A stretch of 32,000 nt of DNA, taken from positions 30,001 through 62,000 of the forward strand of contig NZ_WUUQ01000006.1 in NCBI RefSeq assembly GCF_009831105.1, given 5' to 3'. This DNA is from Copranaerobaculum intestinale. Its GTDB lineage: Bacteria; Bacillota_I; Bacilli_A; Erysipelotrichales; Erysipelotrichaceae. The notes under the pieces were generated by a model. That model saw only the letters and a program-made list of their open reading frames with translations, had not been told where the DNA came from and made no database searches. Of this stretch, positions 3,605 to 29,320 are shown piece by piece. A program made the translations under genes and the position numbers. How positions within the stretch are numbered: position 1 is the stretch's first letter; every line of letters begins with the position of its first letter.

Positions 3605-4135
3605 ATGGATTTACAAAAATGGTATAAGGAAAAACGGTGCATTGTAGGCGATGGAATCGTTCTGCATCCGATTACAGAAGCGGATGTGGATGATATCTTT
3701 GCGAATTTCACAAAGCCCGTCACAAAATATATGTATCCGGCAGCACCAAAGGATAAGTCAGAAACGGAAGCGTTCGTTTATGGAGCGGTACGAGGCTGGC
3801 AATGCGGGATTGAAACAGTGTTTATCATCCGTGATAAGGAAGGCGGGTTTATCGGCTGTGTCGGACTTCATGGAATTTTATGCGGTCATCCGGAAATTGG
3901 AATCTGGACAAGTGAAAAGGTTCGGGGACATGGATATGGAAAACAGGCGGTGGAGCTGGCGGTCAGATTTGGACGGGAAATGCTGAAGCCGGACTATTTT
4001 GTATATCCGGTCGATCACCGCAACGGACCAAGCCGCCGTATTCCCCTGTCGATGAACGGCAAAGCGATGCGTGAATTTACCTATGAAAATAAAAGCGGTG
4101 ATACACTGGAAATGATCGAATACTGGATCGATTGA
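3605..4135 (+). CDS. GNAT family N-acetyltransferase (RimJ/RimL-like)
   Basis: 176 aa with SD AAGGAGAA. Typical GNAT core IGCVGLH...GHGYGKQAVELAVRF. Confidence 0.8.
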   Translation: MDLQKWYKEKRCIVGDGIVLHPITEADVDDIFANFTKPVTKYMYPAAPKDKSETEAFVYGAVRGWQCGIETVFIIRDKEGGFIGCVGLHGILCGHPEIGIWTSEKVRGHGYGKQAVELAVRFGREMLKPDYFVYPVDHRNGPSRRIPLSMNGKAMREFTYENKSGDTLEMIEYWID

Positions 4136-4815: not shown

Positions 4816-4844
4816 TTGACGGTCTGACAGATGTTTGCTATACT
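4816..4844 (+). promoter_or_regulatory. Sigma-A type promoter for the ABC-F leader
   Basis: TTGACG (4816-4821), 17-nt spacer, TATACT (4839-4844). Confidence 0.55.
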
Positions 4845-4868
4845 GAAACCAACGTTAGGAGTGGAAAG

Positions 4869-4886
4869 ATGAGAAATAAAGGATAA
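4869..4886 (+). CDS. Candidate 5-codon leader peptide (MRNKG) of the ABC-F attenuator
   Basis: ATG AGA AAT AAA GGA TAA, preceded by AGGAGTGG with its core about 7 nt upstream. It lies between the promoter and the terminator at 4959-4984. Confidence 0.4.
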   Translation: MRNKG

Positions 4887-4958
4887 TTGAGAAAAACCAA
4901 ATCTGTTTCGGTCTTACAATTATCTTTTTTCATGCCTGCCACAATGCAATATAGAAGG

Positions 4959-4984
4959 AAAAGGACGGTAAGCGTCCTTTTTTT
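4959..4984 (+). terminator. Intrinsic terminator (attenuator) 17 nt upstream of the ABC-F start codon
   Basis: AAAAGGACG-GTAAG-CGTCCTTTT stem-loop followed by a run of 7 T. The SD GGAGG for the ABC-F gene lies immediately after the T-run. Confidence 0.7.
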
Positions 4985-5000
4985 CGTGGAGGTGATGTTT

Positions 5001-6548
5001 ATGCTCAATCTGCTCAATGTTAAAATCCGGCATCAAAACGGAGATTTATTAATAGATACATTAAATTTACAGGTTCATGAACACGATCGGATCGGGATTA
5101 TCGGTGAAGAGGGTAATGGAAAATCCACTTTGCTGAAAGCGATCGCTGATTTATCATGGGTAACAGATTATGCAGGTATTGAAGGAACGATATGTAAGGA
5201 ACGAAATTTAAAAATCGGATATTTTGCTCAGGCACTGGAACCGATTTGGAAGGATACACTGATTTATGAATATTTATTAAAATCGTCTCCTGAAGCAGAG
5301 GTAAAACAGGAACAATACAATGAACTGCGGGAATATGCCAAGGAAGCGCAGCAGTTGAAAATGGACGTTGAACTATTACAGCGCGATCAGTTGATCGTTC
5401 AGGCCAGCGGCGGGGAAAAGGTAAAGCTGCGATTCTTGAAAATGCTGCATGAGCAGCCGGATATTCTATTGCTGGATGAACCGACAAACGATTTGGATTT
5501 GGATACGCTGGGCTGGCTTGAAAGCTTTATGCTGGGATGTACCAAGCCGATATTGTTTATTTCACATGATGATGTGCTGCTGGAGCGCTGTGCTAACCGT
5601 ATTATTCATATTGAACAGCGTAATCACCGAACCAAACCGGTAACTACGGTTGCCAATACTTCTTATCGGGAGTATATCGAATCACGCGGCATGCGATTGG
5701 AACGAGAACAGCAGCAAGCAAAAAAAGAGAAAGCGGAGTATATCAAGAAAAAGGTCAAATTAAACGATTTGAAAAATGCGGTGCATGATGCGCTGAATGA
5801 TACGGTCAGAAGTCCGTTCTATGCGGCTGGATTGGCTCGCCGTATGGCCAATCTAAAGGCTGTGGATAAACGCTTTGAAAATGTTGGTTATTCACGGGTG
5901 GATACCGTAGAGGAAGCAATCGATATTGGTTTTAAAGTGGCGCCGTTACCAACCGGTAAAATTATTTTAGATCTGGATCGTCCTGTGATAGGCGTGGGGA
6001 ACCGCGTACTGTTGGAGAATGTCCGTTTACTGATTCGCGGCAGGGAAAAGCTGGCTTTGGTTGGCCCTAATGGCTGCGGTAAGACAATTTTTATGAATCA
6101 AATTTATGAATTATTAAAGGATCGTCCAGATATTTGCGTCGGTTATATGCCGCAGGATTATGCTAGGGCATTTGCTGGATTTGATTCTCCGGTTGCATAC
6201 CTTTTAAACGCTGGTGATAAGGATGATGTTACCCGCAGCCGTGACCTATTGGGAAGGATGAAATTCACTGCCGATGATATGCTGAGACCCTGTGCTTCGC
6301 TGTCAGAAGGACAAAAAGCAAAGCTGTGCCTGCTGAAATTTATCAAGGAGGACTGCAATGTACTTTTGCTGGATGAACCGACTCGTAATCTTTCAGCACT
6401 GAGTGCCCCGACAATTTGCCGTATTCTCGCCGATTATCAGGGCTGTATGTTTTCTATCAGCCATGACCGTACCTTTTTGCGGTCATGTGCAGATACTATT
6501 TATGAAATCAAGGATCGAAAATTGGCGGTTGTAAACAGTATTTTATGA
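5001..6548 (+). CDS. ABC-F family ATPase, Lsa-like (candidate ARE-type ribosomal protection protein)
   Basis: Two ABC cassettes and no TM region. Cassette 1: GEEGNGKST, SGGEKVKL, LLLDEPTNDLD. Cassette 2: GPNGCGKT, LSEGQKAKL, LLLDEPTRNLS. A basic interdomain linker of about 80 aa (QQQAKKEKAEYIKKKVKLNDLKN...GLARRMANLKAVDKR) separates them. Start set at ATG 5001 (or 4995), after SD GGAGGTG. The track start at 4887 would read through the terminator. Confidence 0.85.
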   Translation: MLNLLNVKIRHQNGDLLIDTLNLQVHEHDRIGIIGEEGNGKSTLLKAIADLSWVTDYAGIEGTICKERNLKIGYFAQALEPIWKDTLIYEYLLKSSPEAEVKQEQYNELREYAKEAQQLKMDVELLQRDQLIVQASGGEKVKLRFLKMLHEQPDILLLDEPTNDLDLDTLGWLESFMLGCTKPILFISHDDVLLERCANRIIHIEQRNHRTKPVTTVANTSYREYIESRGMRLEREQQQAKKEKAEYIKKKVKLNDLKNAVHDALNDTVRSPFYAAGLARRMANLKAVDKRFENVGYSRVDTVEEAIDIGFKVAPLPTGKIILDLDRPVIGVGNRVLLENVRLLIRGREKLALVGPNGCGKTIFMNQIYELLKDRPDICVGYMPQDYARAFAGFDSPVAYLLNAGDKDDVTRSRDLLGRMKFTADDMLRPCASLSEGQKAKLCLLKFIKEDCNVLLLDEPTRNLSALSAPTICRILADYQGCMFSISHDRTFLRSCADTIYEIKDRKLAVVNSIL

Positions 6549-6573
6549 AAGTAATGAAAATGAATGGAAACGC

Positions 6574-6601
6574 TTGCATAAATCATAATTTAGCGTACAA
6601 T
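6574..6601 (+). promoter_or_regulatory. Sigma-A type promoter upstream of the uORF/ankyrin/EF-G2 unit
   Basis: TTGCAT (6574-6579), 16-nt spacer, TACAAT (6596-6601). Confidence 0.5.
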
Positions 6602-6635
6602 AAGAGTATACTAAGAAGCGAGAGGAGTGGGCATC

Positions 6636-6719
6636 ATGAATCAAACATTGACTGTTCACAAGGTTAATAAGAACCCTGATAATGTCCTCTACTTTTATGC
6701 GGTTTTAAAACGGATGTAA
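6636..6719 (+). CDS. Candidate 27-aa leader peptide MNQTLTVHKVNKNPDNVLYFYAVLKRM
   Basis: ATG 6636 has SD AGGAG 8 nt upstream. The last four codons form the 5' arm of the terminator at 6707-6744, and the TAA stop sits in its loop. Confidence 0.45.
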   Translation: MNQTLTVHKVNKNPDNVLYFYAVLKRM

Positions 6720-6744
6720 TGCGAAAGCGTGCGTCCGTTTTTTT
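6707..6744 (+). terminator. Intrinsic terminator (attenuator) between the uORF and the ankyrin gene
   Basis: AAAACGGATG (6707-6716) pairs with CGTCCGTTTT (6732-6741), with one G-U pair and a 15-nt loop. The T-run extends to 6744. Confidence 0.7.
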
Positions 6745-6782
6745 ATCAGAGATTTTGATCTATTGAAAAGGAGGAATTTAAT

Positions 6783-7451
6783 ATGGATCAGATGAACAAG
6801 GCTTTCTGGGAAGCAGCTGCAAATGGTGATTTTACAACAATTTGTGCAGAGGTAAAAAAAGGTACTGACATTAACTATCAAAACGGTGACGGACGTACTG
6901 CCTTAATGCGCAGTGCTAAACGTGGTTATAAAGATATCGTTCGCGTTTTGCTGGATAATGGTGCAGATGTCAACCTTGAAGATAATTCCGGAAAGACGGC
7001 AATCATGGGAGCAGCGAAAAAAGGTCATAAAACGATCGTTAAGAAATTGATTGAAGCAGGTGCGGATGTCAACAAGCAGGACGATCGCGGCCGCAATGCG
7101 CTGATGCGTGCTGCATTCCTCGGCCAGGATCGCGTGGTTACTGTGCTGCTAGACGCCGGTGCTGATATTAATACACAGGACGAAGTGGGAAGAACTGCTT
7201 TGATGGAAGCATGTGTTGCTTTTAAAATGGATACGATCAAGCTGTTGGTTGAACACGGCGCTGATCTGAACTTATGTGATAATAATGGATGTACAGCGCT
7301 GATGCGCGCAGCGTATGCCGGCTATCGTGATTTGGTTGAATATCTGCTGGATCATGGTGCAGACAAGGAGCTGTTGGATAAAGAAGGTAGAAAAGCGGTT
7401 CATTACGTTCGTGAACACTGTCTTGACGAACTGAAACCGATTTTGAAATAG
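6783..7451 (+). CDS. Ankyrin-repeat protein, cytoplasmic (about 6 ANK repeats)
   Basis: Repeated 33-aa units of the form xGRTALMxAAxxGxxxIVxxLLxxGADVNxxD, for example DGRTALMRSAKRGYKDIVRVLLDNGADVNLED and NSGKTAIMGAAKKGHKTIVKKLIEAGADVNKQD. No signal peptide. Strong SD AAAGGAGGAA. Confidence 0.9.
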   Translation: MDQMNKAFWEAAANGDFTTICAEVKKGTDINYQNGDGRTALMRSAKRGYKDIVRVLLDNGADVNLEDNSGKTAIMGAAKKGHKTIVKKLIEAGADVNKQDDRGRNALMRAAFLGQDRVVTVLLDAGADINTQDEVGRTALMEACVAFKMDTIKLLVEHGADLNLCDNNGCTALMRAAYAGYRDLVEYLLDHGADKELLDKEGRKAVHYVREHCLDELKPILK

Positions 7452-7465
7452 GAGGGCTGGCGGAT

Positions 7466-9547
7466 ATGAGAGACTATTTAGCCCATGAAGTTCGCAATGT
7501 ATCAGTTTTAGGACACAGCGGTGCCGGCAAGACAGCGGTGCTGGAAGCGATGCTCTATTTTACCAAGGCAACAGATCGTTTTGGAAAAACCAAAGAGGGA
7601 AGCTCTTTGATCGATTATGACAGTGAAGAAATACGCCGCGGCATTAGTGTTTATACATCGCTTGTGCCGATTGAATGGAAAGAGAATAAAATTAATTTTA
7701 TCGATACACCAGGTTATCTGGATTTCGTCGGTGAAAGTGAAGCCGGCGTTGCGGTTGGTGATAATGCGTTAATTGTAGTAGGTGCGAAGGATGGTGTGCA
7801 GAGCGGTACCCAGAAGGCATGGGAAGAAGCGCAGTCGCGTAAGCTGCCGACGATCTTCTTTATCAACAAGCTGGATGAGGAGAACGCATCCTTTGACAGC
7901 GCCTATCAGAATCTGCGTGATGTATTTGGAAAGGCGGTTATTCCATTTGAGGTACCAATCGTTGAAAATAATGAAATTATCGGTTCTGTCAATATTTTAA
8001 GAGATAAGGCATGGTATTATAAGGGACCTTTGGCTGATCCGGAAAAAGCCCAGCCGGTACCTGAAAATATGGTGGATGTGGTAAACGGATATAAAGATCA
8101 GATTGCAGAAGCAGTCGCCATGGGTGATGATGAACTTATGGAGAAATACTTTAGCGGAGAACCGTTCTCAGAGGCTGAATTGACGCGCGGGGTGCGCATC
8201 GGTGTTCGCAGCGGTGAAATTCGTCCCGTATTCAGCGGCAGCGCCGTTCAAAGCATCGGCATAGAACGTTTGATGGATCTGATTGTGAAGTATTTCCCTG
8301 CTTATGGTGAAATGGGAAGCTTTGAAGCAATGGATCTGGCTAAGCATGAACCGGTGATCTTAGAGACGAATGAAAAGGAAACTATGACTGCGCAAGTATT
8401 CAAAACAATCATAGATCCGTTTGTCGGCCGCATTTCATATCTGAAAGTTTGTTCCGGAGTGATGAGTGCTGATTCGCAGGTGTATAATCCAAAACAAGAT
8501 CGTACCGAAAAGATCTCACAATTGTTTATTATCAAAGGAAAGCATCAAACCGCTGTCGGGAAATTGTTTACCGGTGATATTGGAGCGGTGGTAAAGCTTC
8601 AGAGTACGCTCACTAATGATACCTTGTGTGATAAAGACAGTCGTATCGTACTAGCAGATATCCCGTTTTCTGAACCGATGCTAGGTCAGGCAGTTTATCC
8701 GAAATCAAAGAATGATGAGGATAAGATGAGTAATGCCCTGCAGCGCATGTGCGAAGAAGATCCGACATTGAAATTGATCAATAATAAAGAAACCAGAGAA
8801 ACAGTCTTATATGGAGTTGGTGATCAGCATATTGATGTTGTATTAGCCAAACTAAAATCAAAATATAAAGTGGAAGTAATCCTGCGCGATCCTAAAGTCC
8901 AGTATCGAGAGACCATTCGTAAAAAAGTAATCGGTGAAGGGCGGCATAAGAAACAAACCGGCGGACACGGACAGTTTGGACATGTGTTCGTAGAGTTCGC
9001 GCCTAATCCGGATGAAGTGGAAATGGTGTTTGATGAAAAAGTATTTGGCGGAGCAGTGCCGCGTCAATACTTCCCGGCCGTTGAGACAGGCCTTCACGAA
9101 TGCTGTGAAAAGGGTATTTTGGCAGGATGCAGGGTTGTCAATATGAAAGCAACGCTATTGGATGGAAAGTATCATGATGTCGATTCCAGTGAAATGGCTT
9201 TTAAAATGGCTGCACATTTGGCTTATAAGGACGGCATGACAAAGGCTGAACCGATTTTGCTGGAGCCGATCGTCATTGCCAGTGTAAAAGTACCGGATGA
9301 ATATACCGGCACGATTATGGGTGATTTCAACAAACGCCGCGGTATGATCATCGGTATGGATCTGCAGGACGGCTATCAGCTGATCAAAGCAAGTGTGCCG
9401 CAGGCTGAAATGATGAAATATCCGATTGAGCTTCGTGCGATGACCCAGGGACGCGGAACATATACACAGGAATTTGATCGTTATGATGTTGTTCCTCAGA
9501 ACATTGCAGAGCGTGTGATTGCCAGTGTAAAAAACGATAGTGAGTAA
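7466..9547 (+). CDS. Elongation factor G paralog (EF-G2-type translational GTPase)
   Basis: 693 aa. G1 GHSGAGKT (housekeeping EF-G has AHIDAGKTT), G3 DTPGYLDF, G4 NKLD. The EF-G domain IV/V region is present (HKKQTGGHGQFGHV, YHDVDSSEMAFKMA). It is not in an rpsL-rpsG-fusA-tuf context. The start is 14 nt after the ankyrin stop, with SD GGAGGG. Confidence 0.9.
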   Translation: MRDYLAHEVRNVSVLGHSGAGKTAVLEAMLYFTKATDRFGKTKEGSSLIDYDSEEIRRGISVYTSLVPIEWKENKINFIDTPGYLDFVGESEAGVAVGDNALIVVGAKDGVQSGTQKAWEEAQSRKLPTIFFINKLDEENASFDSAYQNLRDVFGKAVIPFEVPIVENNEIIGSVNILRDKAWYYKGPLADPEKAQPVPENMVDVVNGYKDQIAEAVAMGDDELMEKYFSGEPFSEAELTRGVRIGVRSGEIRPVFSGSAVQSIGIERLMDLIVKYFPAYGEMGSFEAMDLAKHEPVILETNEKETMTAQVFKTIIDPFVGRISYLKVCSGVMSADSQVYNPKQDRTEKISQLFIIKGKHQTAVGKLFTGDIGAVVKLQSTLTNDTLCDKDSRIVLADIPFSEPMLGQAVYPKSKNDEDKMSNALQRMCEEDPTLKLINNKETRETVLYGVGDQHIDVVLAKLKSKYKVEVILRDPKVQYRETIRKKVIGEGRHKKQTGGHGQFGHVFVEFAPNPDEVEMVFDEKVFGGAVPRQYFPAVETGLHECCEKGILAGCRVVNMKATLLDGKYHDVDSSEMAFKMAAHLAYKDGMTKAEPILLEPIVIASVKVPDEYTGTIMGDFNKRRGMIIGMDLQDGYQLIKASVPQAEMMKYPIELRAMTQGRGTYTQEFDRYDVVPQNIAERVIASVKNDSE

Positions 9548-9554
9548 ATACCTT

Positions 9555-9581
9555 AAGACCGATTCATTTCGGTCTTTTTTT
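9555..9581 (+). terminator. Rho-independent terminator of the ankyrin/EF-G2 operon
   Basis: AAGACCGA-TTCATT-TCGGTCTT followed by a T-run. Confidence 0.8.
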
Positions 9582-9674
9582 AAGCAGGAAGGTTATCAGG
9601 TATTTTTCAATATCTGTGTTTCTTGCCTGATTATGCTTAAAGCGCTAATGCAAATATCAAATCATACAGGTATT

Positions 9675-9714: not shown

Positions 9715-11220
9715 TTATACCTGATATATAGAACTGTATTTCTGAATGAGATAATCGATATAATATTGCGGATTGAATGGTTCGCCGGTTACCCGCTTTA
9801 AAATTTCTTCGCTTGGTAAGTAGGAACCATATTTATGAATGTTGTCATGCAGCCACTTTGCGATTACCTCGAAATGATTTTGTGCGAGCAGGGAATCGAC
9901 ATCCAGGTCTTTCATCATTTGATGATAGAATTGCGCGCTGAAGGCACTGCCGAGTGCATAAGTCGGGAAATAACCGATCTGACCGCTGCCCCAGTGCATA
10001 TCCTGTAAAATACCCTCAGCTGGATTAGCTGGACGTATTCCTAAATATTCTTCATATTTATCCGCCCAGATCTGATCCAGATGATCAAGCGGCATGTCCT
10101 CGTTGAAGATGGCTTTCTCCAGTTCATAGCGGATCAAAATATGAATCGGATAGGTCAGCTCATCCGCATCAGTACGAATCAGCGAAGGATGAGAAATATT
10201 GATTTGTTTCATGAAGCTGTCCAAATCCACTTTGCCGAGCTCTTGAGGAAACAGCTCCTGCAATGCAGGATAGTTGTTGACCCAAAAGCTGCGGTTTCTG
10301 CCGATATAATTCTCCAGCATTCTGCTTTGTGATTCATGAATGCCCATACTCATATTTTCACCGAGCACATGGGTATTGTCATATTCAGAATCTACCTGCA
10401 TACCGTAAAGTGCGTGACCGTACTCATGAATGATCGAGAAAATGCTGCTGGTGATAAAATCCTCATCGTAGGCAGTTGTCAAACGGGTGTCGCCGGGGCC
10501 AACCTTCATCGTATACGGATGCATTGAAACACCCATATAACATTTGCTTGCGTCAAAGTGCAGATATTCCTTAACAACCTCTATGAAAGCCGCCTGTTTC
10601 TCAGCATCGAAGTGCTGATGCATCGCTGAATCATCGATTTGCTTACCCTCTTTACCGATTTTTTGGATAAAGGGAAGCAGCTCCTGTTTGATTTTGGCAA
10701 AAAAAGCATCGTATTTTTTGATGTTCATTCCTGGTTCATAATCATCTAAGAGCATATCATAGGGTGTGCCGTTTTCAGCTCGATAGGAAAGCAGTTTTTT
10801 CAATGCCTGAATTGTCTTTTTCAGATATGGCTCAAAAATAGCATAATCCTTTTTTTGCTTGGCTTCTTCCCAAGCTACAGAGCTATCTGCAATCAGATTT
10901 TGATAAGCCACATATTCCGCTTTGGGGATAATGCGAATATCACGAAGCAGCCGCAGCCGCTGCCGTACGCTCTCTTTTGTGATGTCATCCAAATCGTCCA
11001 GCTTCAGCATCGCTTCCAGCTTTTCGAGATTTTTCGGATCGGTCATATAGCTGAAGGATTCACCTTCCAAAATGGATGTCAGCTTATTGCGCATCGCTGC
11101 GCCGGCTTTTGGGGCAATCGTCGTTTTATCAAAGTAAATGATAGAATTTGCCAGCTGATACGCCGCGCACATTTCTTCATAGTCTTGATAGAATTTCACA
11201 TAGTCATTTGTATTCATCAT
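9715..11220 (-). CDS. Carboxypeptidase M32 (Taq-type metallocarboxypeptidase)
   Basis: Zinc motif HEYGHALY, plus HESQSR and IRTDADELTY family motifs. Start set at ATG 11220 (MMNTNDY, SD AGAGGTGAAA) rather than the track start at 11265. Confidence 0.9.
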   Translation of the reverse strand: MMNTNDYVKFYQDYEEMCAAYQLANSIIYFDKTTIAPKAGAAMRNKLTSILEGESFSYMTDPKNLEKLEAMLKLDDLDDITKESVRQRLRLLRDIRIIPKAEYVAYQNLIADSSVAWEEAKQKKDYAIFEPYLKKTIQALKKLLSYRAENGTPYDMLLDDYEPGMNIKKYDAFFAKIKQELLPFIQKIGKEGKQIDDSAMHQHFDAEKQAAFIEVVKEYLHFDASKCYMGVSMHPYTMKVGPGDTRLTTAYDEDFITSSIFSIIHEYGHALYGMQVDSEYDNTHVLGENMSMGIHESQSRMLENYIGRNRSFWVNNYPALQELFPQELGKVDLDSFMKQINISHPSLIRTDADELTYPIHILIRYELEKAIFNEDMPLDHLDQIWADKYEEYLGIRPANPAEGILQDMHWGSGQIGYFPTYALGSAFSAQFYHQMMKDLDVDSLLAQNHFEVIAKWLHDNIHKYGSYLPSEEILKRVTGEPFNPQYYIDYLIQKYSSIYQV

Positions 11221-11332
11221 TTTCACCTCTAAGGGTATTGTACCCGAACTTATAAAAATACTCAATTTTTAAACTGCTGAATATTGAAATATTTGTTATA
11301 ATAAATATATATCATGGAAAGAAGGTGAAGAC

Positions 11333-11794
11333 ATGTATCAGAAGTGCGTAGATATGCTGCATAGCCGGGGTGTACAGCTGCAGGATATAGCGGACTGCGT
11401 CATGTTTCTGCAAAAGAAATATCAGCCGGGGCTGACCAGTGAAAAGTGTATGACGGCGATTGATACCGTGCTTCACAAGCGGGAAGTCCAACACGCGATT
11501 ATTACCGGCATCTACTTGGATCGTGCTGCCGAACAAGGAATCATGGATGATCATGATTTGGAACACATATTGATGAATGACAATCCGCTGTATGGGATTG
11601 ATGAAGTGCTCGCTTATGGAATCTGTAACTTGTATGGTTCGATCGCCCTGACAAATTATGGCTATATTGATAAGGTAAAGCCTGGGATCATCGAGAAACT
11701 GAATATCAAGGGTGAACAATGCAATACATTTTTAGATGATATCGTGGGTGCGATTGCGGCTGCCGCTGCATCAAAGCTGGCTCACAATGTATAA
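11333..11794 (+). CDS. Phosphatidylglycerophosphatase A family protein (B. subtilis YutG-like)
   Basis: Close resemblance throughout to YutG, for example PLYGIDEV, YGSIALTNYGYIDKVKPGII and TFLDDIVGAIAAAAAS. Confidence 0.8.
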   Translation: MYQKCVDMLHSRGVQLQDIADCVMFLQKKYQPGLTSEKCMTAIDTVLHKREVQHAIITGIYLDRAAEQGIMDDHDLEHILMNDNPLYGIDEVLAYGICNLYGSIALTNYGYIDKVKPGIIEKLNIKGEQCNTFLDDIVGAIAAAAASKLAHNV

Positions 11795-11817
11795 CTGACG
11801 TCGAAAGGGGAATCGAA

Positions 11818-12243
11818 ATGAAGAAGCTGCTGATCATGTCCTGCTGTCTGTTGGCAGTCATGACTGGATGTAAAAAAGAAACAAAAATGGAAACAGAACA
11901 TGTCGTGCAGCTGAGCGCGGAAGAGGTCAATAAAAAGATACGGCGCAAAACCGGATCTTTCCTTCTATATCTCACGACTGATGAGTGTTATTCCTGCAAT
12001 GAATACGACAAAGTGCTAGCGAAGCTCCAGAAAAATGCATCGTTTAAAATTTATTTTGTGCTGGTTGACGATGAAGATGAGGAGCAGCTGCGTGAATTAA
12101 AAATGACACTTGGCAATTATGAGACATTGCCGATGACCTATTATATCCAGGATGGAAAAGTAAGCAAAGAGAATACAAAGGCAGGATATATGGAAAAGGA
12201 TGAATACAGGAAATGGCTGCAGAAATTGGACGTCATAAAATAG
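11818..12243 (+). CDS. Lipoprotein, thioredoxin-like with a CxxC motif
   Basis: Signal peptide and lipobox MKKLLIMSCCLLAVMTGC. CYSC motif in a thioredoxin-like context (LLYLTTDECYSCNEYD). Confidence 0.65.
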   Translation: MKKLLIMSCCLLAVMTGCKKETKMETEHVVQLSAEEVNKKIRRKTGSFLLYLTTDECYSCNEYDKVLAKLQKNASFKIYFVLVDDEDEEQLRELKMTLGNYETLPMTYYIQDGKVSKENTKAGYMEKDEYRKWLQKLDVIK

Positions 12244-13028
12244 AATCAACGATAGATGTGACTGCTTCGAAAAGTGATATCATCGAGATGCTGGAAAGCA
12301 TGGGCGTACAGCGGGGAATGCTGCTGCTGGTTCAGGGGGATATGCGCCGTTTGGGCTATGTGTGCGGTGGTGCGCAGGCATTGATTGAAGCATTGATGGA
12401 AGCAGTTAGCTATGAGGGAACGATCGTAATGCCTGCCTTTACGGATTCGCTCGTTGATCCAAGCTGTATGCGTAAGCAGGTGTTGGAGCGTGACTGCTGG
12501 GACGATGTTCGTCATGCAGCACTGCCGTTTGATCGAAAAAAAACGGTAGATGGATTGAAGGATACTCTGGCGCTGCAGTTTATGCGAAATGAGGGGGTGC
12601 TTCGTTCTTATCATCCTTTACATTCTTTTCTTGCATGGGGAAAATATGCGAAGGTGCTATGTGATAAGCATCCGCTGCATTTCTCATTGTCGAAGGATTC
12701 ACCCTTGGGACGGCTATATGATATGAATGCGTTTGTTCTTGAGCTGGGTGTTTCCTACCGAAACTGTGTAGTGTTCCATTTAGCGCATTATTATGATGAA
12801 ACGGAGCCGATTCATGTGGTGTGTGCGCCAATTGAAAAAGGCCAGCGCATGATTTGGAAGGATATGCTCGATCTGGATTTTGACAACACCGCTTATGAAA
12901 CACTAGGAGAAATCATGGAAGACCGCAATATCGTCAAAGAAGGCTTTTTGAACCGCGGTTTATGCAGACTTTTCTCAGCCCGTGAAGCAGTGAATATTGC
13001 CAATGCATATTTTCATATTCAAAAATAA
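12213..13028 (+). CDS. AAC(3)-family aminoglycoside N3-acetyltransferase-like protein (B. subtilis YokD-like)
   Basis: LLLVQGDMRRLGYVCGGAQALIEALMEAV..GTIVMPAFT and HPLHSFLAWGKYA...SPLGRLYD match the AAC(3)/YokD pattern. The start is uncertain: ATG 12213 overlaps the upstream gene by 31 nt and has a weak SD. Confidence 0.75.
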   Translation: MAAEIGRHKIESTIDVTASKSDIIEMLESMGVQRGMLLLVQGDMRRLGYVCGGAQALIEALMEAVSYEGTIVMPAFTDSLVDPSCMRKQVLERDCWDDVRHAALPFDRKKTVDGLKDTLALQFMRNEGVLRSYHPLHSFLAWGKYAKVLCDKHPLHFSLSKDSPLGRLYDMNAFVLELGVSYRNCVVFHLAHYYDETEPIHVVCAPIEKGQRMIWKDMLDLDFDNTAYETLGEIMEDRNIVKEGFLNRGLCRLFSAREAVNIANAYFHIQK

Positions 13029-13056
13029 ACGCCTGAGATCATTTCAGGCGTTTTTT
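13028..13056. terminator. Shared terminator hairpin between convergent genes
   Basis: AACGCCTGA-GATCATT-TCAGGCGTT followed by TTTTTT. The 3' arm overlaps the last codons and stop of the minus-strand GNAT gene. Confidence 0.7.
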
Positions 13057-13580
13057 ATGAAATCTTTTTTACGTGCGCTGTAGATCAGATGCGGCATTTC
13101 AATATCGTAATAATGCTTTGTAAATTTGCCGCGCACTTCCATGCTATTGTTGAGGGCAACATTGCGGGAAGCGATATTATTTTCGCGGATGATGGAATAT
13201 ACTTCATCAAATTCCAGCTGTTTAAACGCGTAGATACGGCAGGCACTGGCAGCTTCTATCGCGAAACCCTGATGCCAGTGGTTACGATTCAGAAGATAAC
13301 CGATTTCCGGTACTTCTTTTCCCGGGATCTTTTGCATGGTAATTCCACACTGTCCGATCACTTCACCGGTTTCCTTCAGCACGACTGCCCATAATCCAAA
13401 GCCATCCTTCTGATATCGGATGATCTGATGAGTGATCCAATCTTTTACTTCCTGATCGCTGAATGCGTGTTCGTATGCATACATCGTTTGTTCATCTTGC
13501 AGGATAGAGGCAATTGCTTTTGTATCACGCATCGTCATTTCCCGCAGCATAAGGCGGCTGGTTTCCAAAATCACATGCAT
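13044..13580 (-). CDS. GNAT family N-acetyltransferase
   Basis: 178 aa with the RimJ/RimL-like pattern LETSRLMLREMT...GLWAVVLKETGEVIGQCG...WHQGFAIEAASA. Confidence 0.8.
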   Translation of the reverse strand: MHVILETSRLMLREMTMRDTKAIASILQDEQTMYAYEHAFSDQEVKDWITHQIIRYQKDGFGLWAVVLKETGEVIGQCGITMQKIPGKEVPEIGYLLNRNHWHQGFAIEAASACRIYAFKQLEFDEVYSIIRENNIASRNVALNNSMEVRGKFTKHYYDIEMPHLIYSARKKDFIKNA

Positions 13581-22958: not shown

Positions 22959-24161
22959 TTAGCGCTTTACGATAACTGCTGTACCCATACCGCCGCCGAT
23001 GCAAAGAGATGCAAGACCGGTGTGCAGATCGCGCTTCATCATTTCGTGAATCAGTGTAACGAAGATTCGGTTTCCGGAAGCACCTACCGGATGACCTAAG
23101 GCAATCGCGCCTCCGTTCACGTTAGTTTTTTCCATGAATGCATCGCGATCGATCTTGTGTTCTTCCACCAGTTCGTGGATAACACCCAGTGACTGAGCGG
23201 CAAATGCTTCATTCAGCTCAACCAGTTCTACATCGTCTAATTTCATCTCTGCCTGGTTCAGGGCATTGCGGATTGCCGGTGTAGGACCAAGACCCATTAC
23301 TTTTGGATCAACGCCGCCCTGACCGAATCCGACAATTTCACACAGAACGTTCAGATTATATTTTTTAACTGCATCTTCGCTTGCCAGCAATACGAAGCTT
23401 GCGCCATCGTTGATGCCGGATGCGTTACCTGCGGTAACACTGCCGTCCTTGATGAAGGCCGGACGCAGCGTAGCTAATTTTTCACGTGTTGATTTGCGGT
23501 TTGGATGTTCATCTGTATCAAAGATGACCGTCTCTTTACGCTTTTTCACTTCAACTGGTACGATTTCATCTTTAAAGCGTCCGCTGTCTACTGCGGCGAT
23601 CGCTTTCTGCTGCGAAGCATAAGCGAAGTCATCCTGCATCTCACGAGTGATGCTATATTTGGCAGCGATGTTTTCGGCAGTAACACCCATGTGGATGTTG
23701 TCGAATGCATCGGTCAATGCGTCATAGATCATGTGATCAACGGTAGTAAAGTTACCCATTTTGTTTCCGGTGCGGGCATTGCCTGGCACCAGGTAAGGGG
23801 CACCGCTCATGGACTCCACACCACCGGCTACGACGATATCGTTGAAACCGCACTGGATGGACATAGCACCTTCCATAACGGTTCTTAAGCCGGAACCGCA
23901 GACCATATTTACGCTGTGTGCGCAAACTGTTTCAGGGATACCGGAGAGAATTGATACCTGACGGGCTACGTTTTGACCAAGCCCTGCGGATAATACATTA
24001 CCTACGATTACTTCATTGACATTTTCAGGAGCAACTTTGGCATCTTCCAATAACGCTTTTACAACCGTTGAACCCAAAACCTCTGGCTTTACCGTTGTCA
24101 AAGAACCAAGGAAACTGCCGATCGCACTACGTTTAGCGCTGACTACATACGTTTTTCTCAT
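22959..24161 (-). CDS. thl: Acetyl-CoA C-acetyltransferase (thiolase)
   Basis: Active-site regions [30 protein letters not shown] and CIGGGMG. ATG 24161 preferred to the track's TTG at 24170. Confidence 0.92.
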
Positions 24162-24215
24162 TTTCCTCAACCTGCTTTCTTTTCATATTGTATTTCCTAG
24201 CTTAAATACATACCC

Positions 24216-24244
24216 ATGATAGCGAAAAAAGAATGGTTTGTCAA
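24216..24244 (-). promoter_or_regulatory. Sigma-A type promoter of thl
   Basis: On the minus strand: TTGACA (24244-24239), 17-nt spacer, TATCAT (24221-24216). Confidence 0.5.
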
Positions 24245-24249
24245 TAAAC

Positions 24250-24267
24250 TTGTGAAAAAATTAATAA
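24250..24267. promoter_or_regulatory. Rex-like operator (imperfect) next to the thl -35
   Basis: TTGTGAA-AAAA-TTAATAA versus the Rex consensus TTGTGAA/TTGTTAA-N4-TTCACAA/TTAACAA. The left half is perfect and the right half has 1-2 mismatches. Confidence 0.45.
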
Positions 24268-24358
24268 GCAAGAATTGATGATTATTAACAAGCAGAAAAG
24301 TCATGAAAAAAGGAAATGAAAAATGTAAACGCTACCAAGTTTTAAAATGCAAAATTAC

Positions 24359-24376
24359 TTGTTAATATTTTAACAA
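24359..24376. promoter_or_regulatory. Rex operator, perfect palindrome TTGTTAA-TATT-TTAACAA
   Basis: Exact match to the clostridial-type Rex box TTGTTAANNNNTTAACAA. It ends 6 bp before the bcd -35 hexamer. Confidence 0.7.
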
Positions 24377-24382
24377 TTACCA

Positions 24383-24411
24383 TTGACGGAGTGGGATTTA
24401 GGTTATAAAAT
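24383..24411 (+). promoter_or_regulatory. Sigma-A type promoter of the bcd operon
   Basis: TTGACG (24383-24388), 17-nt spacer, TAAAAT (24406-24411). TATAAA with a 15-nt spacer is an alternative -10. Confidence 0.45.
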
Positions 24412-24532
24412 TAGAGAGGTTACAAGGCGATTTTATACTGTCTGGCTTTGTAAGAAATCCTTCGTGATGGATTTATGAATGACCAGAACGAAGGGAATTA
24501 TGTTCAAGATATTCAAGGAGAGGAGAACATTT

Positions 24533-25672
24533 ATGGATTTCATGTTAACAGAACAACAAAAAATGATGAAAAAGCTTTTTTCCGAGTTCGCCGAAAAAGA
24601 AGTTAAACCGATTGCCGGTGAAATTGATGAAGAAGAGCGTTTTCCACGCGTTACTGTCGAGAAAATGGAAGCCTGCAAAATGCTAGGTATCCCATTCCCA
24701 CGGGAATATGGAGGAGCAGGAGCAGATTATCTGAGTTATATTCTGGCGGTAGAGGAGCTCAGTAAGGTCTGCGGTACTACAGGCGTCATCCTGTCTGCAC
24801 ATACATCATTGGGCACCAGTCCGATCGCAGCCTTCGGTACTGAGGAACAGAAACAGAAATATCTGCCTGATCTTTGTACCGGAAGAAAGCTGGGAGCGTT
24901 TGGCTTAACTGAGCCGAATGCCGGTACGGACGCAGCCGGTCAGCAGACAACAGCGGTAAAGGATGGTGAGGACTACATCATCAACGGTTCTAAAATCTTC
25001 ATCACCAATGCCGGAGAAGCAGACATCTATGTAATCTTCGCCATGACGGATAAATCACAGGGAACCCGCGGTATTTCCGCATTCATCCTGGAAAAGGGAA
25101 TGCCGGGATTCACGATCGGCAAACATGAGAAAAAGCTGGGTATCCGTGCTTCTGCTACCTGTGAGCTGATCTTTAACAACGTTCGCGTATCCAAAGCAAA
25201 CCTGCTCGGTCAGGAAGGCAAAGGATTTAAGATTGCCATGCAGACCCTGGACGGCGGCCGTATCGGAATCGCCGCGCAGGCACTGGGAATTGCCCAGGGC
25301 GCGATTGACGAAGCTGTGGCTTACGTGAAATCTCGTAAACAGTTTGGCCGTCCGATCGCAAAATTCCAGAATACGCAGTTCCAACTGGCAGATATGCAGA
25401 CAAAAGTAGATGCTGCCCGCTTCTTAGTATACAATGCCGCTATGTGCAAGCAGAATGGTCAGCCATATACCGTTGCGGCTGCGGAAGCAAAATTGTTTGC
25501 GGCAGAAACTGCGATGGAGGTTACAACAAAGGCAATCCAGCTGTTAGGCGGATACGGCTATACAAGAGATTATCCAGTAGAGAGAATGTTCCGTGATGCG
25601 AAAATCACTGAAATTTACGAGGGTACATCGGAAGTACAGCGCATGGTTATCAGCGGACAGATGCTGAAGTAA
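24533..25672 (+). CDS. bcd: Butyryl-CoA dehydrogenase (short-chain acyl-CoA dehydrogenase)
   Basis: MDFMLTEQQKMMKKLFSEFAEKEVKPIAGEIDEEERFP..., GLTEPNAGTDA and YEGTSEVQRMVISG. Start at ATG 24533 with SD AAGGAGAGGAG. Confidence 0.92.
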   Translation: MDFMLTEQQKMMKKLFSEFAEKEVKPIAGEIDEEERFPRVTVEKMEACKMLGIPFPREYGGAGADYLSYILAVEELSKVCGTTGVILSAHTSLGTSPIAAFGTEEQKQKYLPDLCTGRKLGAFGLTEPNAGTDAAGQQTTAVKDGEDYIINGSKIFITNAGEADIYVIFAMTDKSQGTRGISAFILEKGMPGFTIGKHEKKLGIRASATCELIFNNVRVSKANLLGQEGKGFKIAMQTLDGGRIGIAAQALGIAQGAIDEAVAYVKSRKQFGRPIAKFQNTQFQLADMQTKVDAARFLVYNAAMCKQNGQPYTVAAAEAKLFAAETAMEVTTKAIQLLGGYGYTRDYPVERMFRDAKITEIYEGTSEVQRMVISGQMLK

Positions 25673-25692
25673 GAGAAAGGATGACAACTGAT

Positions 25693-26481
25693 ATGAAAAT
25701 TGTAGTTCTTGTAAAACAGGTACCTGATTCAACTGAAATCAGAGTCGATAAAGAAACCGGAACCCTGATTCGCGCCGGTGTTCCAAGCATCATCAATCCG
25801 GACGATCTAGCCGGTGTGGAAGCTGCTCTGCAGCTGAAAGAAAAACATGGTGCTACGGTAACCATTATCTCCATGGGACCACCACAGGCTTCCGATATGC
25901 TGAAAGAATTATATGCGCGCGGTGTTGATGAATGCATTCTGATTACAGACCGTGCGTTTGCCGGAGCTGATACTTGTGCAACCTCTTCTACCCTGGCGGC
26001 GGCATTGACCAAGACCGGTTATGATTTAATTATTGCCGGACGTCAGGCAATCGACGGTGATACTGCACAGGTAGGACCGCAGACGGCAGAGCGTTTGAAT
26101 ATTCCTCAGGTAACCTATGTTGATGAGATCATCGATCTAAATGACAAAACGGTTACCGTAAAGAAAGCCTTAGAAGACAGTGAAGAAATCTTAGAAGCAA
26201 AATTACCTTGTGTATTAACAACCTTGAGCGGTATGAATGAGCCTCGCTACATGAATTGTAATGATATTGTCGATTCGTTCAGCAAAGAAGTAAAAATCAT
26301 GACCTTCAGCGATCTGGATATCGATGCAAGCAAAGTTGGTTTGGCCGGTTCTCCTACCAAAGTACACCACACGTTCACAAAAGAAGTTTCTGCCCAGACA
26401 GAGACATTTACATTACCTGCTGATGAAGCCGCAAAATTGATTGCGACGAAATTAAAAGAAAAGCAGTTAATTACGAAATAG
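25693..26481 (+). CDS. etfB: Electron transfer flavoprotein beta subunit
   Basis: MKIVVLVKQVPD..., IINPDDLAGVEAAL and GRQAIDGDTAQVGP. Homologs start at MxIVVxxKQVPD, so ATG 25693 is preferred to 25681. Confidence 0.9.
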   Translation: MKIVVLVKQVPDSTEIRVDKETGTLIRAGVPSIINPDDLAGVEAALQLKEKHGATVTIISMGPPQASDMLKELYARGVDECILITDRAFAGADTCATSSTLAAALTKTGYDLIIAGRQAIDGDTAQVGPQTAERLNIPQVTYVDEIIDLNDKTVTVKKALEDSEEILEAKLPCVLTTLSGMNEPRYMNCNDIVDSFSKEVKIMTFSDLDIDASKVGLAGSPTKVHHTFTKEVSAQTETFTLPADEAAKLIATKLKEKQLITK

Positions 26482-26493
26482 GAGGACAGCGAA

Positions 26494-27516
26494 ATGGCTA
26501 AATTTGAAGGATATAAAGATATTTACGTTTTCGTTGAACAGAAGAACGGAAACATCGCCAATGTTGGCTATGAATTGATCAGCGAAGCGCGCAAGCTGGT
26601 AAAACAGATTCCCCACATGAACTTTGAAGTTGTCGGAGTACTGCTGGGACATCATATCGCTTCGAAAGCAAACGATGTAATCGCACACGGTGCTGATAAA
26701 GTAATCGTAGTCGATCACGAACTGTTGGAAAACTATTCTACGCAGTTCTATACGGATGCTTTGACCCAGGTCATCAATGCATTCAAACCAGATTCTTTCC
26801 TGACTGGTGCTACCGTGCTTGGCCGCGATTTGGCACCGCGGGTTGCGGCACGTCTGAACGCCGGCTTAACTGCCGATGCGACAAAAATTGAAATGGATCC
26901 GGAAAAAGAAGATGAAGCACTGCTGTTAGTCACTCGTCCGACCTTCGGCGGTAACTTATTCGGAACGATCATCTGTCCGGATACCCGTCCACAGATGGCA
27001 ACGATCCGTCCTAACGTATTCTCCATGGATCCGGTTGATCCTGCTCATGAGGGAGAAGTGATCGTATTCAATCCTTCCTTTGATGATACGGAAGCTAAAG
27101 TTGTTGTAAAAGAAATTATTGAAAAAGTCGTGGAAGGCATCGACATCACAAAATCTGATATTCTGGTAGGAGCCGGCCGCGGCGCGGAAGACTGCCTGGA
27201 TATAGTAGAAGCAGTTGCTGAAGAGCTGGGCGGGGCAATGTGTGCCAGCCGTGCTGTGGTTGATGACGGCTTTGCCGACAAAGCAATTCAGGTAGGACAG
27301 ACTGGTAAGACTGTACGCCCTTCCCTGTATATTGCCTGCGGCATCAGCGGAGCTTGCCAGCATGTTGCCGGCATGGAAAAATCCGATATGATTATCGCAA
27401 TTAATCGTGATCCTCAGGCAGAAATCTTTAATATCGCCAATATCGGAATCATCGGTGATGTGAAAGAAATCCTGCCGCTGCTGAAAGAGGAAATCAAAAA
27501 CGTAAAAGCGGCATAA
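26494..27516 (+). CDS. etfA: Electron transfer flavoprotein alpha subunit
   Basis: GRDLAPRVAARL..., the FAD-binding C-terminal region ASRAVVD.G...QVGQTGKTV.P.LYIACGISGA.QH, and IIAINRD. Confidence 0.9.
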   Translation: MAKFEGYKDIYVFVEQKNGNIANVGYELISEARKLVKQIPHMNFEVVGVLLGHHIASKANDVIAHGADKVIVVDHELLENYSTQFYTDALTQVINAFKPDSFLTGATVLGRDLAPRVAARLNAGLTADATKIEMDPEKEDEALLLVTRPTFGGNLFGTIICPDTRPQMATIRPNVFSMDPVDPAHEGEVIVFNPSFDDTEAKVVVKEIIEKVVEGIDITKSDILVGAGRGAEDCLDIVEAVAEELGGAMCASRAVVDDGFADKAIQVGQTGKTVRPSLYIACGISGACQHVAGMEKSDMIIAINRDPQAEIFNIANIGIIGDVKEILPLLKEEIKNVKAA

Positions 27517-27561
27517 GCTGCAAAGCTATATAATGATGAAAGTGAAAAGGAGCGAACTATT

Positions 27562-28401
27562 ATGAAAAAGATTGGTGTAATCGGCGCCGGCACTATGGGC
27601 CAGGGCATTGCGAACGCATTTGCTTCAAACGGATATGAAGTTACCGTATGCGATATCAACATTGAATTTGCACAAAACGGGGTTGCGAAAATCAACAATA
27701 AGCTGGATAAACTGGTAAGCCGTGAAAAAATGACGGCAGAAGCTGCCGCTAAGGTAAAAGCAAACCTGAAAACTGGAGTATATGAAGATCTGAACGATGT
27801 AGATTTTATCATTGAAGCAGTTCTTGAGAAAATGGAAATTAAAAAAGATCTGTTCACCAAACTGGATGAAATCTGTAAAGAATCCTGCATCTTCGGTACG
27901 AACACATCTTCATTATCGGTAACTGAAATTGCCAAAGGCATCAAGCATGACGTTATCGGTATGCACTTCTTCAATCCGGCTGATCGTATGAAGCTGGTTG
28001 AAGTTATTTCCGGAATCAATACGCCGGCTGCTGTCAAAGATACGGTTATTGAATTAGCGAAAGCACTGGGCAAAACACCGGTAGAGGTTGCAGAAGGTCC
28101 GGGATTCGTTGTGAACCGCATCCTGATTCCAATGATCAACGAAGCTGCTTTCATCCTGCAGGAAGGCATTGCCAGCGCGGAAGATATTGATACGGCCATG
28201 AAGCTTGGTGCGAACCATCCTATGGGTCCTCTGGCCCTGGGCGATCTGATCGGCTTGGATGTTGTACTGGCTATTTTGGATGTATTACAGGCAGAAACCG
28301 GTGATCCGAAATACCGTGCCTGCACGCTGATCAAGAAAATGGTTCGCGGCGGCAAACTGGGACAGAAAACTGGCGTAGGATTCTACGACTACACAAAATA
28401 A
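27562..28401 (+). CDS. hbd: 3-hydroxybutyryl-CoA dehydrogenase
   Basis: MKKIGVIGAGTMGQGIA (NAD fold), FNPA, GFVVNRIL and HPMGPLALGDLIGLD. Confidence 0.92.
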   Translation: MKKIGVIGAGTMGQGIANAFASNGYEVTVCDINIEFAQNGVAKINNKLDKLVSREKMTAEAAAKVKANLKTGVYEDLNDVDFIIEAVLEKMEIKKDLFTKLDEICKESCIFGTNTSSLSVTEIAKGIKHDVIGMHFFNPADRMKLVEVISGINTPAAVKDTVIELAKALGKTPVEVAEGPGFVVNRILIPMINEAAFILQEGIASAEDIDTAMKLGANHPMGPLALGDLIGLDVVLAILDVLQAETGDPKYRACTLIKKMVRGGKLGQKTGVGFYDYTK

Positions 28402-28414
28402 AGTGTATTGCAAT

Positions 28415-28451
28415 AACAGTAGAATCGACATGTACGGTTCTACTGTTTCTT
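28415..28451 (+). other. Intercistronic stem-loop between hbd and crt (weak U-tract)
   Basis: AACAGTAGAA-(13 nt)-TTCTACTGTT followed by TCTT. Confidence 0.4.
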
Positions 28452-28480
28452 ATACGTAAACACGTAGGAAAGGTGAAAAT

Positions 28481-29260
28481 ATGGATACAGTATTATTAGA
28501 GATGAAAGAACATATCGCAACCATTACCATCAATCGTCCCAAGGCGCTGAATGCTTTGAGTACAGAGGTTCTGGAAGATTTGAATACTGCTTTGGCACAG
28601 GTTTGTGCAACCAAAAGCATATATGCTTTGATTATCACTGGAGCTGGTGACAAGAGCTTTGTGGCAGGTGCGGATATTGCGGAAATGAAAGATAAAAATG
28701 TAGATGAGGCAGCTACTTACGGCCGTTTCGGAAACCAGATCTTCCGCCGTATTGAAAACTTCCGCTGTCCGGTCATTGCGGCGATCAACGGATTTGCATT
28801 AGGCGGCGGCTGCGAGCTTGCCTGCGCATGTGATATTCGTATCGCTGCTGATAATGCGGTATTCGGTCAGCCGGAAGTAGGATTGGGCATTACCCCGGGA
28901 TTCGGCGGAACACAGCGTCTGGCACGCCTTGTCGGTGCCGGCCCAGCCAAAGAAATGATCTTTACCGGACGTAATATCAAAGCGGATAAAGCATTGGCTA
29001 TCGGCTTGGTAAACAGTGTTGTTCCGCACGATGAGCTGATGGCAGCGGCTGAGAAAATGGCAGCGAATATTGCCAAGAACGCACCAATCGCTGTCGCAAA
29101 TGCGAAAACGGCAATCAATGAAGGCTTGCAGACAAATATTGACGCAGGCATCAACATTGAGGTAAAGGCTTTCTCTGCATGCTTTGCAACTGAAGATCAG
29201 AGAACTGGAATGAACGCTTTCGTAAATAAAGAAAAAGTTGATGCATTCGCAAATAAATAA
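28481..29260 (+). CDS. crt: Short-chain enoyl-CoA hydratase (crotonase)
   Basis: ITINRPKALNAL, FVAGADI.EM, AAINGFALGGGCELA..CD.RIA and GQPEV.LGI.PGFGGTQRL. Confidence 0.9.
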   Translation: MDTVLLEMKEHIATITINRPKALNALSTEVLEDLNTALAQVCATKSIYALIITGAGDKSFVAGADIAEMKDKNVDEAATYGRFGNQIFRRIENFRCPVIAAINGFALGGGCELACACDIRIAADNAVFGQPEVGLGITPGFGGTQRLARLVGAGPAKEMIFTGRNIKADKALAIGLVNSVVPHDELMAAAEKMAANIAKNAPIAVANAKTAINEGLQTNIDAGINIEVKAFSACFATEDQRTGMNAFVNKEKVDAFANK

Positions 29261-29264
29261 GCAA

Positions 29265-29301
29265 AAAGACAGATAGAGACAGAAGGACACTATCTGTCTT
29301 T
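29265..29301 (+). other. Intercistronic stem-loop between crt and the CoA-transferase gene (weak U-tract)
   Basis: AAAGACAGATA-(15 nt)-TATCTGTCTTT, an 11-bp perfect stem followed by CTCGC. Confidence 0.4.
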
Positions 29302-29320
29302 CTCGCAAAGGAGTGTTGAA

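Follow-up and report, generated by a model that had tools for sequence, protein, structure and literature searches.

Why should a small ankyrin-repeat protein be encoded immediately in front of a relative of translation elongation factor G (EF-G)? The question is raised by a stretch of 32,000 nucleotides (nt) from Copranaerobaculum intestinale (contig NZ_WUUQ01000006.1, positions 30,001 to 62,000; referred to here as the window), in which the gene for a protein built of ankyrin (ANK) repeats directly precedes the gene for an EF-G paralog. An earlier inspection of the same DNA, termed the sequence-only reading below, considered the ANK protein as a possible dedicated partner of an “EF-G2-type” factor. 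The comparative analysis described here places the two genes in a module found throughout the Erysipelotrichaceae, in which the EF-G paralog has lost its catalytic histidine and the ANK gene follows a short leader that resembles a transcription attenuator.

The gene pair and its conservation

The two genes and their signals are arranged in the window as follows:

6783-7451, plus strand: ANK gene, 222 codons, encoding a cytoplasmic ankyrin-repeat protein, with its own Shine-Dalgarno (SD) sequence GGAGG at 6770-6774
7451-7456, plus strand: SD sequence of the EF-G paralog gene, GGAGGG, overlapping the ANK stop codon
7466-9547, plus strand: EF-G paralog gene of the EFG II type, 693 codons, G3 motif DTPGY
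9555-9584, plus strand: intrinsic terminator at the end of the operon, found by a terminator scan, with an 8-bp stem (9555-9576) containing 4 GC pairs and followed by a T-run

The sequence-only reading had given open reading frames (ORFs) of 222 and 693 amino acids (aa) separated by 14 nt, and an ORF check returned the same coordinates. Both genes lie on the same strand, and the gap between them carries a GGAGG ribosome-binding site. The claim that no terminator separates the genes and that one follows them was likewise borne out by the terminator scan, which detected no terminator-like site between them on the plus strand and, downstream of the pair, only the stem at 9555-9576 with its T-run. 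Neither rpsL nor rpsG nor tuf is present within the 32-kb window, which accordingly contains no str operon.

The adjacency is not a peculiarity of one strain. A scan with the EF-G query against one genome per species returned 80 loci with 62-81% EF-G identity, all of them from genera of the Erysipelotrichaceae (Amedibacillus, Massilicoli, Merdibacter, Longicatena, Dielma, Faecalicoccus, Holdemanella, Catenisphaera, Absicoccus, Breznakia, Dubosiella, Allobaculum, Faecalibaculum, Ileibacterium, and Erysipelothrix). An ANK ortholog was located directly upstream of the EF-G gene in every one of these 80 species-level loci (tblastn, 55-88% identity), including four in which a contig end cuts into the ANK gene. 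The orthologs were recovered by tblastn on the loci themselves; a protein search with ANK returned mostly generic ankyrin proteins. A further search from the most distant branch identified paired loci in Anaerorhabdus and an Erysipelothrix sp., where a 222-aa ANK gene lies 8-10 nt upstream. Where both genes are complete (116 loci), ANK is 222-224 aa long and is separated from the EF-G gene by 6-24 nt, most often by 12. Such short gaps, taken together with the absence of an intervening terminator, suggest that the two genes are co-transcribed.

Metagenomic sequences draw the same boundary from the side of the ANK gene. Every relative with at least 60% identity that has downstream sequence is followed by an EF-G of the same type, and among unrelated ankyrin proteins, with at most 45% identity, none has this EF-G downstream, apart from one frameshifted contig. 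The two proteins have also diverged in parallel: in 73 species-level pairs, the pairwise identities of ANK and EF-G correlate with r = 0.90, and their mean values are similar (70.7% for ANK and 68.6% for EF-G). The ANK protein is thus as constrained as the translation factor. Flanking genes differ between loci; apart from the pair, nothing in the neighborhood is conserved as a unit. Because adjacency in 80 of 80 loci, co-divergence and the isolation of the pair as the sole conserved unit coincide, a dedicated functional link between ANK and the EF-G paralog is strongly supported and can be regarded as highly probable.

Judged by its distribution, the operon appears to be core to the family and vertically inherited. 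An M32 carboxypeptidase gene on the minus strand, a PgpA-family gene and a lipoprotein-like ORF recur downstream of the pair in distant members (9715-12243 in the window; loci L001, L020, and L065-L080); the PgpA-family gene (11333-11794) is 61-83% identical in relatives, and the small lipoprotein-like ORF occupies 11818-12243. This recurrence looks like a remnant of ancestral synteny, which would support vertical inheritance. A Holdemanella-like version of the operon was also encountered on three contigs labelled Waltera intestinalis, Bacteroidaceae bacterium, and Segatella copri (L046, L053, and L054, respectively), with 68-69% identity to the window for ANK and 66-68% for EF-G. These contigs are most likely mis-binned Erysipelotrichaceae DNA rather than instances of transfer.

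The EF-G paralog and its ankyrin partner

The 693-aa protein comprises all five EF-G domains (Pfam GTP_EFTU, EF-G_D2, EFG_III, EFG_IV, and EFG_C). The motifs GHSGAGKT (residues 16-23), DTPG (80-83), and NKLD (133-136), as well as domains IV and V, are present as the sequence-only reading had described them. Over residues 6-685 its alignment with Thermus EF-G is collinear, each sequence containing one single-residue gap. In its domain IV loops the protein matches canonical EF-G and differs from Tet proteins, and the tip loops HKKQ[ST]GGHGQFGHV and DGKYHDVDSSE are near-invariant among 104 family sequences. The NCBIfam model “elongation factor G” (NF009381) matches with 873 bits. Collinearity over 680 residues, canonical domain IV loops and this score are what would be expected if the protein were the housekeeping EF-G and ANK an unrelated, conserved neighbor. 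Such an interpretation is scarcely credible, however, as the protein scores 640.2 bits against the canonical EF-G equivalog TIGR00484 and stays below its cut-off of 659.4, is encoded outside the str operon, bears the signature of the EFG II subfamily, and lacks the catalytic histidine in 104 of 104 sequences. In addition, the survey by Margus et al. (2011; PMC3150367) reports no genome with EFG II alone, a single EF-G gene always being EFG I.

The same survey defines the EFG II “type I” signature as Gly16, Leu25, Ser61, Thr291, Gly333, and Lys/Arg352 in the numbering of 1WDT. Mapped through the alignment with Thermus EF-G, five of these six positions agree in the window protein (G16, S61, T314, G358, and K377), and the sixth shows a conservative change, Val25 for Leu. 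The designation “EF-G2-type” therefore holds at the level of the subfamily, as judged by the signature, but not as a statement of closest resemblance among solved structures: canonical EF-G scores 544 bits against the window protein and outranks mycobacterial EF-G2 (431), Thermus EF-G-2 (422), and the Bacteroides protein (413).

A further property, on which the sequence-only reading did not remark, concerns the G3 motif. In the window protein it reads DTPGY, with the catalytic histidine of switch II (DTPGH) replaced by tyrosine. The replacement is a family trait: among the 104 sequences, tyrosine occupies the position in 102, phenylalanine in 2, and histidine in none. According to a 2026 preprint, Mycobacterium smegmatis EF-G2 likewise carries a tyrosine at this site, and the corresponding exchange in EF-G1, H88Y, nearly abolishes ribosome-dependent GTPase activity (bioRxiv 10.64898/2026.05.25.727771). 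The paralog is probably GTPase-impaired.

How far the module extends beyond the family can be read from the relatives of the EF-G paralog. Among 1.84 billion representative proteins, the family amounts to one representative at 68% identity, and the next relative follows at 48%. Closest outside the family are EFG II proteins from Caldicoprobacterales, Oscillospiraceae, Ruminococcus, and Fusobacterium, in which the catalytic histidine is missing too. At five inspected outgroup EFG II loci, neither an ankyrin neighbor nor a leader or terminator upstream of the EFG II gene was found. Since these five loci have neither, the ANK gene and the leader described below appear to be family-specific and can be taken as innovations of the Erysipelotrichaceae lineage. 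One EF-G relative (P0369, 1040 aa) possesses a 348-residue N-terminal extension without a Pfam match. It was considered as a possible Rosetta-stone fusion of the two partners and discarded, as the extension contains no ankyrin domain; it is the only long EF-G relative.

Within the clade, 24 EF-G residues are at least 95% conserved and shared with at most 15% of the EFG II relatives that lack ANK. Their distribution is uneven: 23 of the 24 are situated in the G, G', and II domains and one in domain IV, and domains III and V contain none.

The ANK protein itself is matched by the Pfam models Ank, Ank_2, and Ank_4 with E-values of 1e-41 to 1e-47 (Ank_2, 1.7e-47), and its best matches in the PDB are designed and natural ANK arrays. 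The array as such is therefore confirmed; instead of the roughly six repeats proposed earlier, a register set by hand yields an N-terminal cap, five full 33-residue tandem repeats and a C-terminal cap. The N-terminus (MDQMNKAFWEAAANGDF) is not hydrophobic, in agreement with the assignment as a protein without a signal peptide. Positions 5, 9, 10, 13, and 14 of each repeat make up the concave binding face of ankyrin proteins; in the alignment of orthologs they are 96-100% conserved and dominated by arginine and lysine (R38, M42, R43, K46, R47, K71, M75, K79, K80, R104, R109, R137, E142, R175, and Y178), and many positions of the outer helices vary. A reading of the pair as a defence system was rejected: PADLOC assigned only generic ankyrin models to ANK and none to the EF-G, and no catalogued system was matched by both.

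The conserved patterns of the two proteins fit an interface between the ANK groove and the GTPase side of the EF-G, without demonstrating one. An Arg/Lys-rich face would also suit an acidic or nucleic-acid ligand, and it is conceivable that the operon serves joint expression only, with ANK directed at the ribosome, through ribosomal RNA (rRNA) or the acidic L7/L12 stalk, or at another factor. The conservation of the operon is equally compatible with such co-regulation without binding, and no fusion protein was seen. Two observations speak against it, and it is considered rather unlikely. The invariant residues in the G, G', and II domains of the EFG II clade are absent from relatives lacking ANK and arose in the lineage in which the ANK gene also appeared. 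Moreover, genes for subunits of one complex typically show gaps as short as these and evolve at equal rates. Neither observation is proof.

The leader upstream of the ankyrin gene

The region immediately in front of the ANK gene contains a promoter, a leader ORF and a terminator, none of which figured in the sequence-only reading:

6574-6601, plus strand: putative sigma-A-type promoter with -35 TTGCAT at 6574-6579, a 16-nt spacer and -10 TACAAT at 6596-6601
6620-6627, plus strand: SD sequence of the leader ORF, GAGAGGAG, followed by TGGG
6636-6719, plus strand: leader ORF of 27 codons plus stop, encoding MNQTLTVHKVNKNPDNVLYFYAVLKRM
6711-6744, plus strand: intrinsic terminator (attenuator), stem-loop CGGATGTAATGCGAAAGCGTGCGTCCG followed by T7, RNAfold energy -13.5 kcal/mol

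The last two sense codons and the stop codon of the leader ORF fall within the 5' arm of the terminator. This arrangement is widespread in the family. An SD-preceded ORF of 17-36 codons (median 27) whose stop codon falls between -12 and +18 nt relative to the point where a terminator stem begins was identified in 65 of 75 species-level loci and in none of 450 controls (375 shuffled and 75 coding-region sequences). Terminator hairpins of differing sequence occupy the equivalent place in 67 of the 75 loci, and several of the ten loci that failed the leader test carry compound hairpins or a displaced terminator. In an alignment of the upstream regions of 25 loci, the block AACGCTTGCA-N16/17-TAnAAT is conserved, and different genera share a GGAGTG(G/A)T block that precedes the leader ATG by 5-8 nt. 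The leader peptide, by comparison, is poorly conserved and has a C-terminus that mirrors the stem sequence; no conserved arrest motif was found in the leader peptides. Leader regions fold more stably than their shuffled counterparts (-24.6 vs. -20.3 kcal/mol). No Rfam family was matched, either by the whole window at gathering thresholds or by the leader at E-values up to 1. A conserved antiterminator sequestering the 5' arm was considered and found no support, with 41% of the bases of the 5' arm pairing upstream as opposed to 52% in shuffles. On these sequence features, the leader looks like a translation-coupled attenuator.

Additional elements were noted in parts of the family. The motif AACGC abutting the -35 element (6570-6579 in the window, AACGCTTGCA) is invariant in the subclade of the window and could be an operator or a UP-like element for a regulator. 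A hairpin inside the leader ORF, at approximately -110 to -85 relative to the ANK start, has changed in a compensatory manner from genus to genus (CCAGT...ACTGG, CCGGT...ACCGG, and CCTGT...GCAGG; loci L006, L009, L011-L013, L015, L019, and L025). In other subclades the terminator is immediately preceded by a small hairpin whose loop is U-rich, such as CCTC-TTTTTT-GAGG in L045. Both types of hairpin may represent RNA polymerase pause elements.

In Firmicutes, attenuators that combine a leader ORF with a terminator mostly control resistance genes such as erm, vmlR, msr, and tet(M). Given that the leader geometry of the ANK operon resembles that of tet(M), and that the ABC-F gene next to it in the window has ARE-like scores and a classic leader with an upstream ORF (uORF) and terminator of its own, the module might be viewed as a drug-responsive system for ribosome protection or back-up translocation, comparable to Tet(M), FusB, and the ARE ABC-F proteins. 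ANK would then clear stalled factors, and the EF-G without the catalytic histidine would be insensitive to a compound that traps EF-G or blocks translocation. The module, however, is core to the family and vertically inherited rather than patchy or mobile, and an ABC-F gene accompanies it at only 2 of 81 loci. The EF-G scores 332 bits against the tet_protect model NF012153, whose cut-off is 775, lies far below every tetracycline-protection cut-off and has no PADLOC or resistance-family matches, and the missing arrest motif of the leader peptides points the same way. Both the drug-responsive role and the proposed insensitivity of the EF-G are regarded as unlikely.

The ABC-F gene was also considered as a component of the module and rejected, being present only in the window and at L050. 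Its start codon is probably the ATG at 5001 rather than the TTG at 4887, which leaves an upstream region (4816-5003) with a promoter TTGACG...TATACT (~4816-4845), an SD sequence, a five-codon uORF encoding MRNKG (4869-4886), and a terminator hairpin with T-run (~4959-4985). This arrangement is classic for antibiotic-inducible ABC-F resistance genes. Its SD sequence, AGGAGTGG, resembles that of the ANK-operon leader. Near the module are also a homolog of AAC(3)-type aminoglycoside N-acetyltransferases (12213-13028; Pfam Antibiotic_NAT, E = 2e-53) and two genes for Gcn5-related N-acetyltransferases of the Acetyltransf_3 type (RimJ/RimL-like; 13044-13580 and 3605-4135). Several ribosome- or antibiotic-related genes consequently lie within 10 kb; they are not kept beside the module elsewhere. 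The wider gene content of the window includes, besides the ABC-F and AAC(3)-like genes, a nitroreductase, the M32 carboxypeptidase, PgpA, a mannose-type phosphotransferase system and a butyrate pathway. The latter is a complete butyrate-type acyl-CoA cluster (22959-30868) with thiolase, acyl-CoA dehydrogenase, EtfB/EtfA, 3-hydroxyacyl-CoA dehydrogenase, enoyl-CoA hydratase, and CoA-transferase.

A possible mechanism and comparison with known systems

The cellular role of EFG II/EF-G2 proteins is debated; a slow translocase that does not hydrolyze GTP has been proposed for Bacteroides and a stress factor for mycobacteria. For the module described here, the best explanation, adopted tentatively and with slightly less than even confidence, is a family-specific alternative-translocase operon that consists of a leader attenuator, an ANK cofactor and an EFG II paralog of low GTPase activity. 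In this model, the paralog would bind GTP and the ribosome with little ribosome-stimulated GTP hydrolysis, as is the case for mycobacterial EF-G2, and would serve as an alternative or regulatory translocase, not as the housekeeping one, while its canonical domain IV could reach the A-site region and decoding centre. The ANK protein would be made in step with EFG II by translational coupling across the short intergenic gap of 6-24 nt. It would be a dedicated, stoichiometric cofactor that, instead of GTP hydrolysis, governs how EFG II enters and leaves the ribosome. Contact with the G/G'/II side of the paralog would probably be made by the concave face of ANK, which is invariant and rich in Arg and Lys. 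At the leader, a ribosome on the last codons would cover the 5' arm of the terminator, and read-through would need a ribosome close behind RNA polymerase; the leader would thereby tie expression of the operon to translation status. Direct binding of ANK to EFG II is about as likely as not. In a more far-reaching version, ANK would be a new kind of cofactor acting in trans at the G/G' side, driving the loading or the release of a catalytically crippled EF-G and so taking over the task of GTP hydrolysis; the leader would gauge the distance between ribosomes and RNA polymerase, and the operon would provide a GTP-sparing translocase geared to the translation and energy state. This version is rather improbable.

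Several points weigh against this explanation. That ANK binds the EF-G, what the pair does and which signal induces it are proposals, and the direction in which the leader regulates is read from its geometry. A natural fusion of the two proteins was absent from the hit lists, none of which contained an architecture combining ANK with GTP_EFTU. The basic groove of ANK could bind rRNA, L7/L12 or another acidic partner instead. Thermus EF-G-2 has been reported to possess GTPase and translocation activity; it presumably lacks the catalytic histidine as well, in which case loss of this residue would not prove loss of GTPase activity. Finally, the presence of a canonical fusA alongside the paralog is assumed from Margus et al. 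(2011; PMC3150367).

EFG II paralogs and leader attenuators as such are already known; what appears to be new is an obligatory ankyrin partner gene for a member of the EF-G family together with a dedicated attenuator. The sequence-only reading had held the module to be undescribed, and full-text literature searches agree, having found neither a paper on it nor a link between a bacterial ankyrin protein and EF-G. Keyword searches of two EF-G surveys (PMC3150367 and PMC4342817) did not find the module, and a literature match on ankyrin “gene neighbourhood”, the stlA locus (PMC3861447), proved unrelated. Many bacterial phyla possess EFG II/EF-G2 paralogs, and the ANK partner and the leader provide a concrete handle on their role. 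The hosts of the module are of interest for the gut (Holdemanella, Faecalibaculum, Dubosiella, and Amedibacillus) and for animal health (Erysipelothrix). If the proposed mechanism is true, regulation of an EF-G family GTPase by a protein cofactor would introduce a principle new to bacterial translation factors, and a bacterial ankyrin protein would have gained a defined cytoplasmic function, which is rare.

Compared with known EFG II/EF-G2 proteins (Thermus EF-G-2, M. smegmatis EF-G2, and B. thetaiotaomicron EF-G2), the window paralog shares the five domains, a P-loop glycine in place of alanine and a location outside the str operon, as well as the signature residues Ser61, Thr291, Gly333, and Lys352 and the loss of the catalytic histidine from DTPGH that is seen in M. 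smegmatis EF-G2. It differs in that its clade reaches at most 48% identity to any other EFG II representative, in scoring higher with solved structures of canonical EF-G than with those of EF-G2, and in its constant position behind an ANK gene with a leader attenuator, neither of which was present in the five nearest EFG II lineages examined. The EF-G2-specific region of 26 residues in Bacteroides EF-G2 has no obvious counterpart in the window paralog, which is collinear with Thermus EF-G.

For the regulatory leader, the closest parallels are pyrBI of E. coli and tet(M) of Tn916, in which an SD-preceded leader ORF likewise runs into an intrinsic terminator, such that a ribosome at the end of the ORF would sterically block the hairpin. 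Both probably act through a ribosome that covers one arm of the terminator. The ANK leader differs from them in lacking sequence similarity or an Rfam family and in governing an ANK–EFG II operon.

The role proposed for ANK finds a counterpart in FusB and FusC, small dedicated proteins that bind EF-G and alter how long it stays on the ribosome, freeing it from ribosomes stalled by fusidic acid (PMC12008383). In contrast to ANK, these have a non-ankyrin fold and stem from acquired resistance genes; their target is the housekeeping EF-G, and no EF-G gene shares an operon with them. Binding to EF-G has been shown for FusB, whereas that of ANK is proposed. The genetic arrangement, in turn, resembles AnkB–KatB of P. 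aeruginosa and Cj1386–KatA of C. jejuni, where the gene for one particular enzyme has beside it a gene for a small ankyrin-only protein that the enzyme requires. These pairs, however, are concerned with catalases and with haem trafficking and work partly in the periplasm, whereas the ANK protein of the window is cytoplasmic and paired with a translational GTPase.

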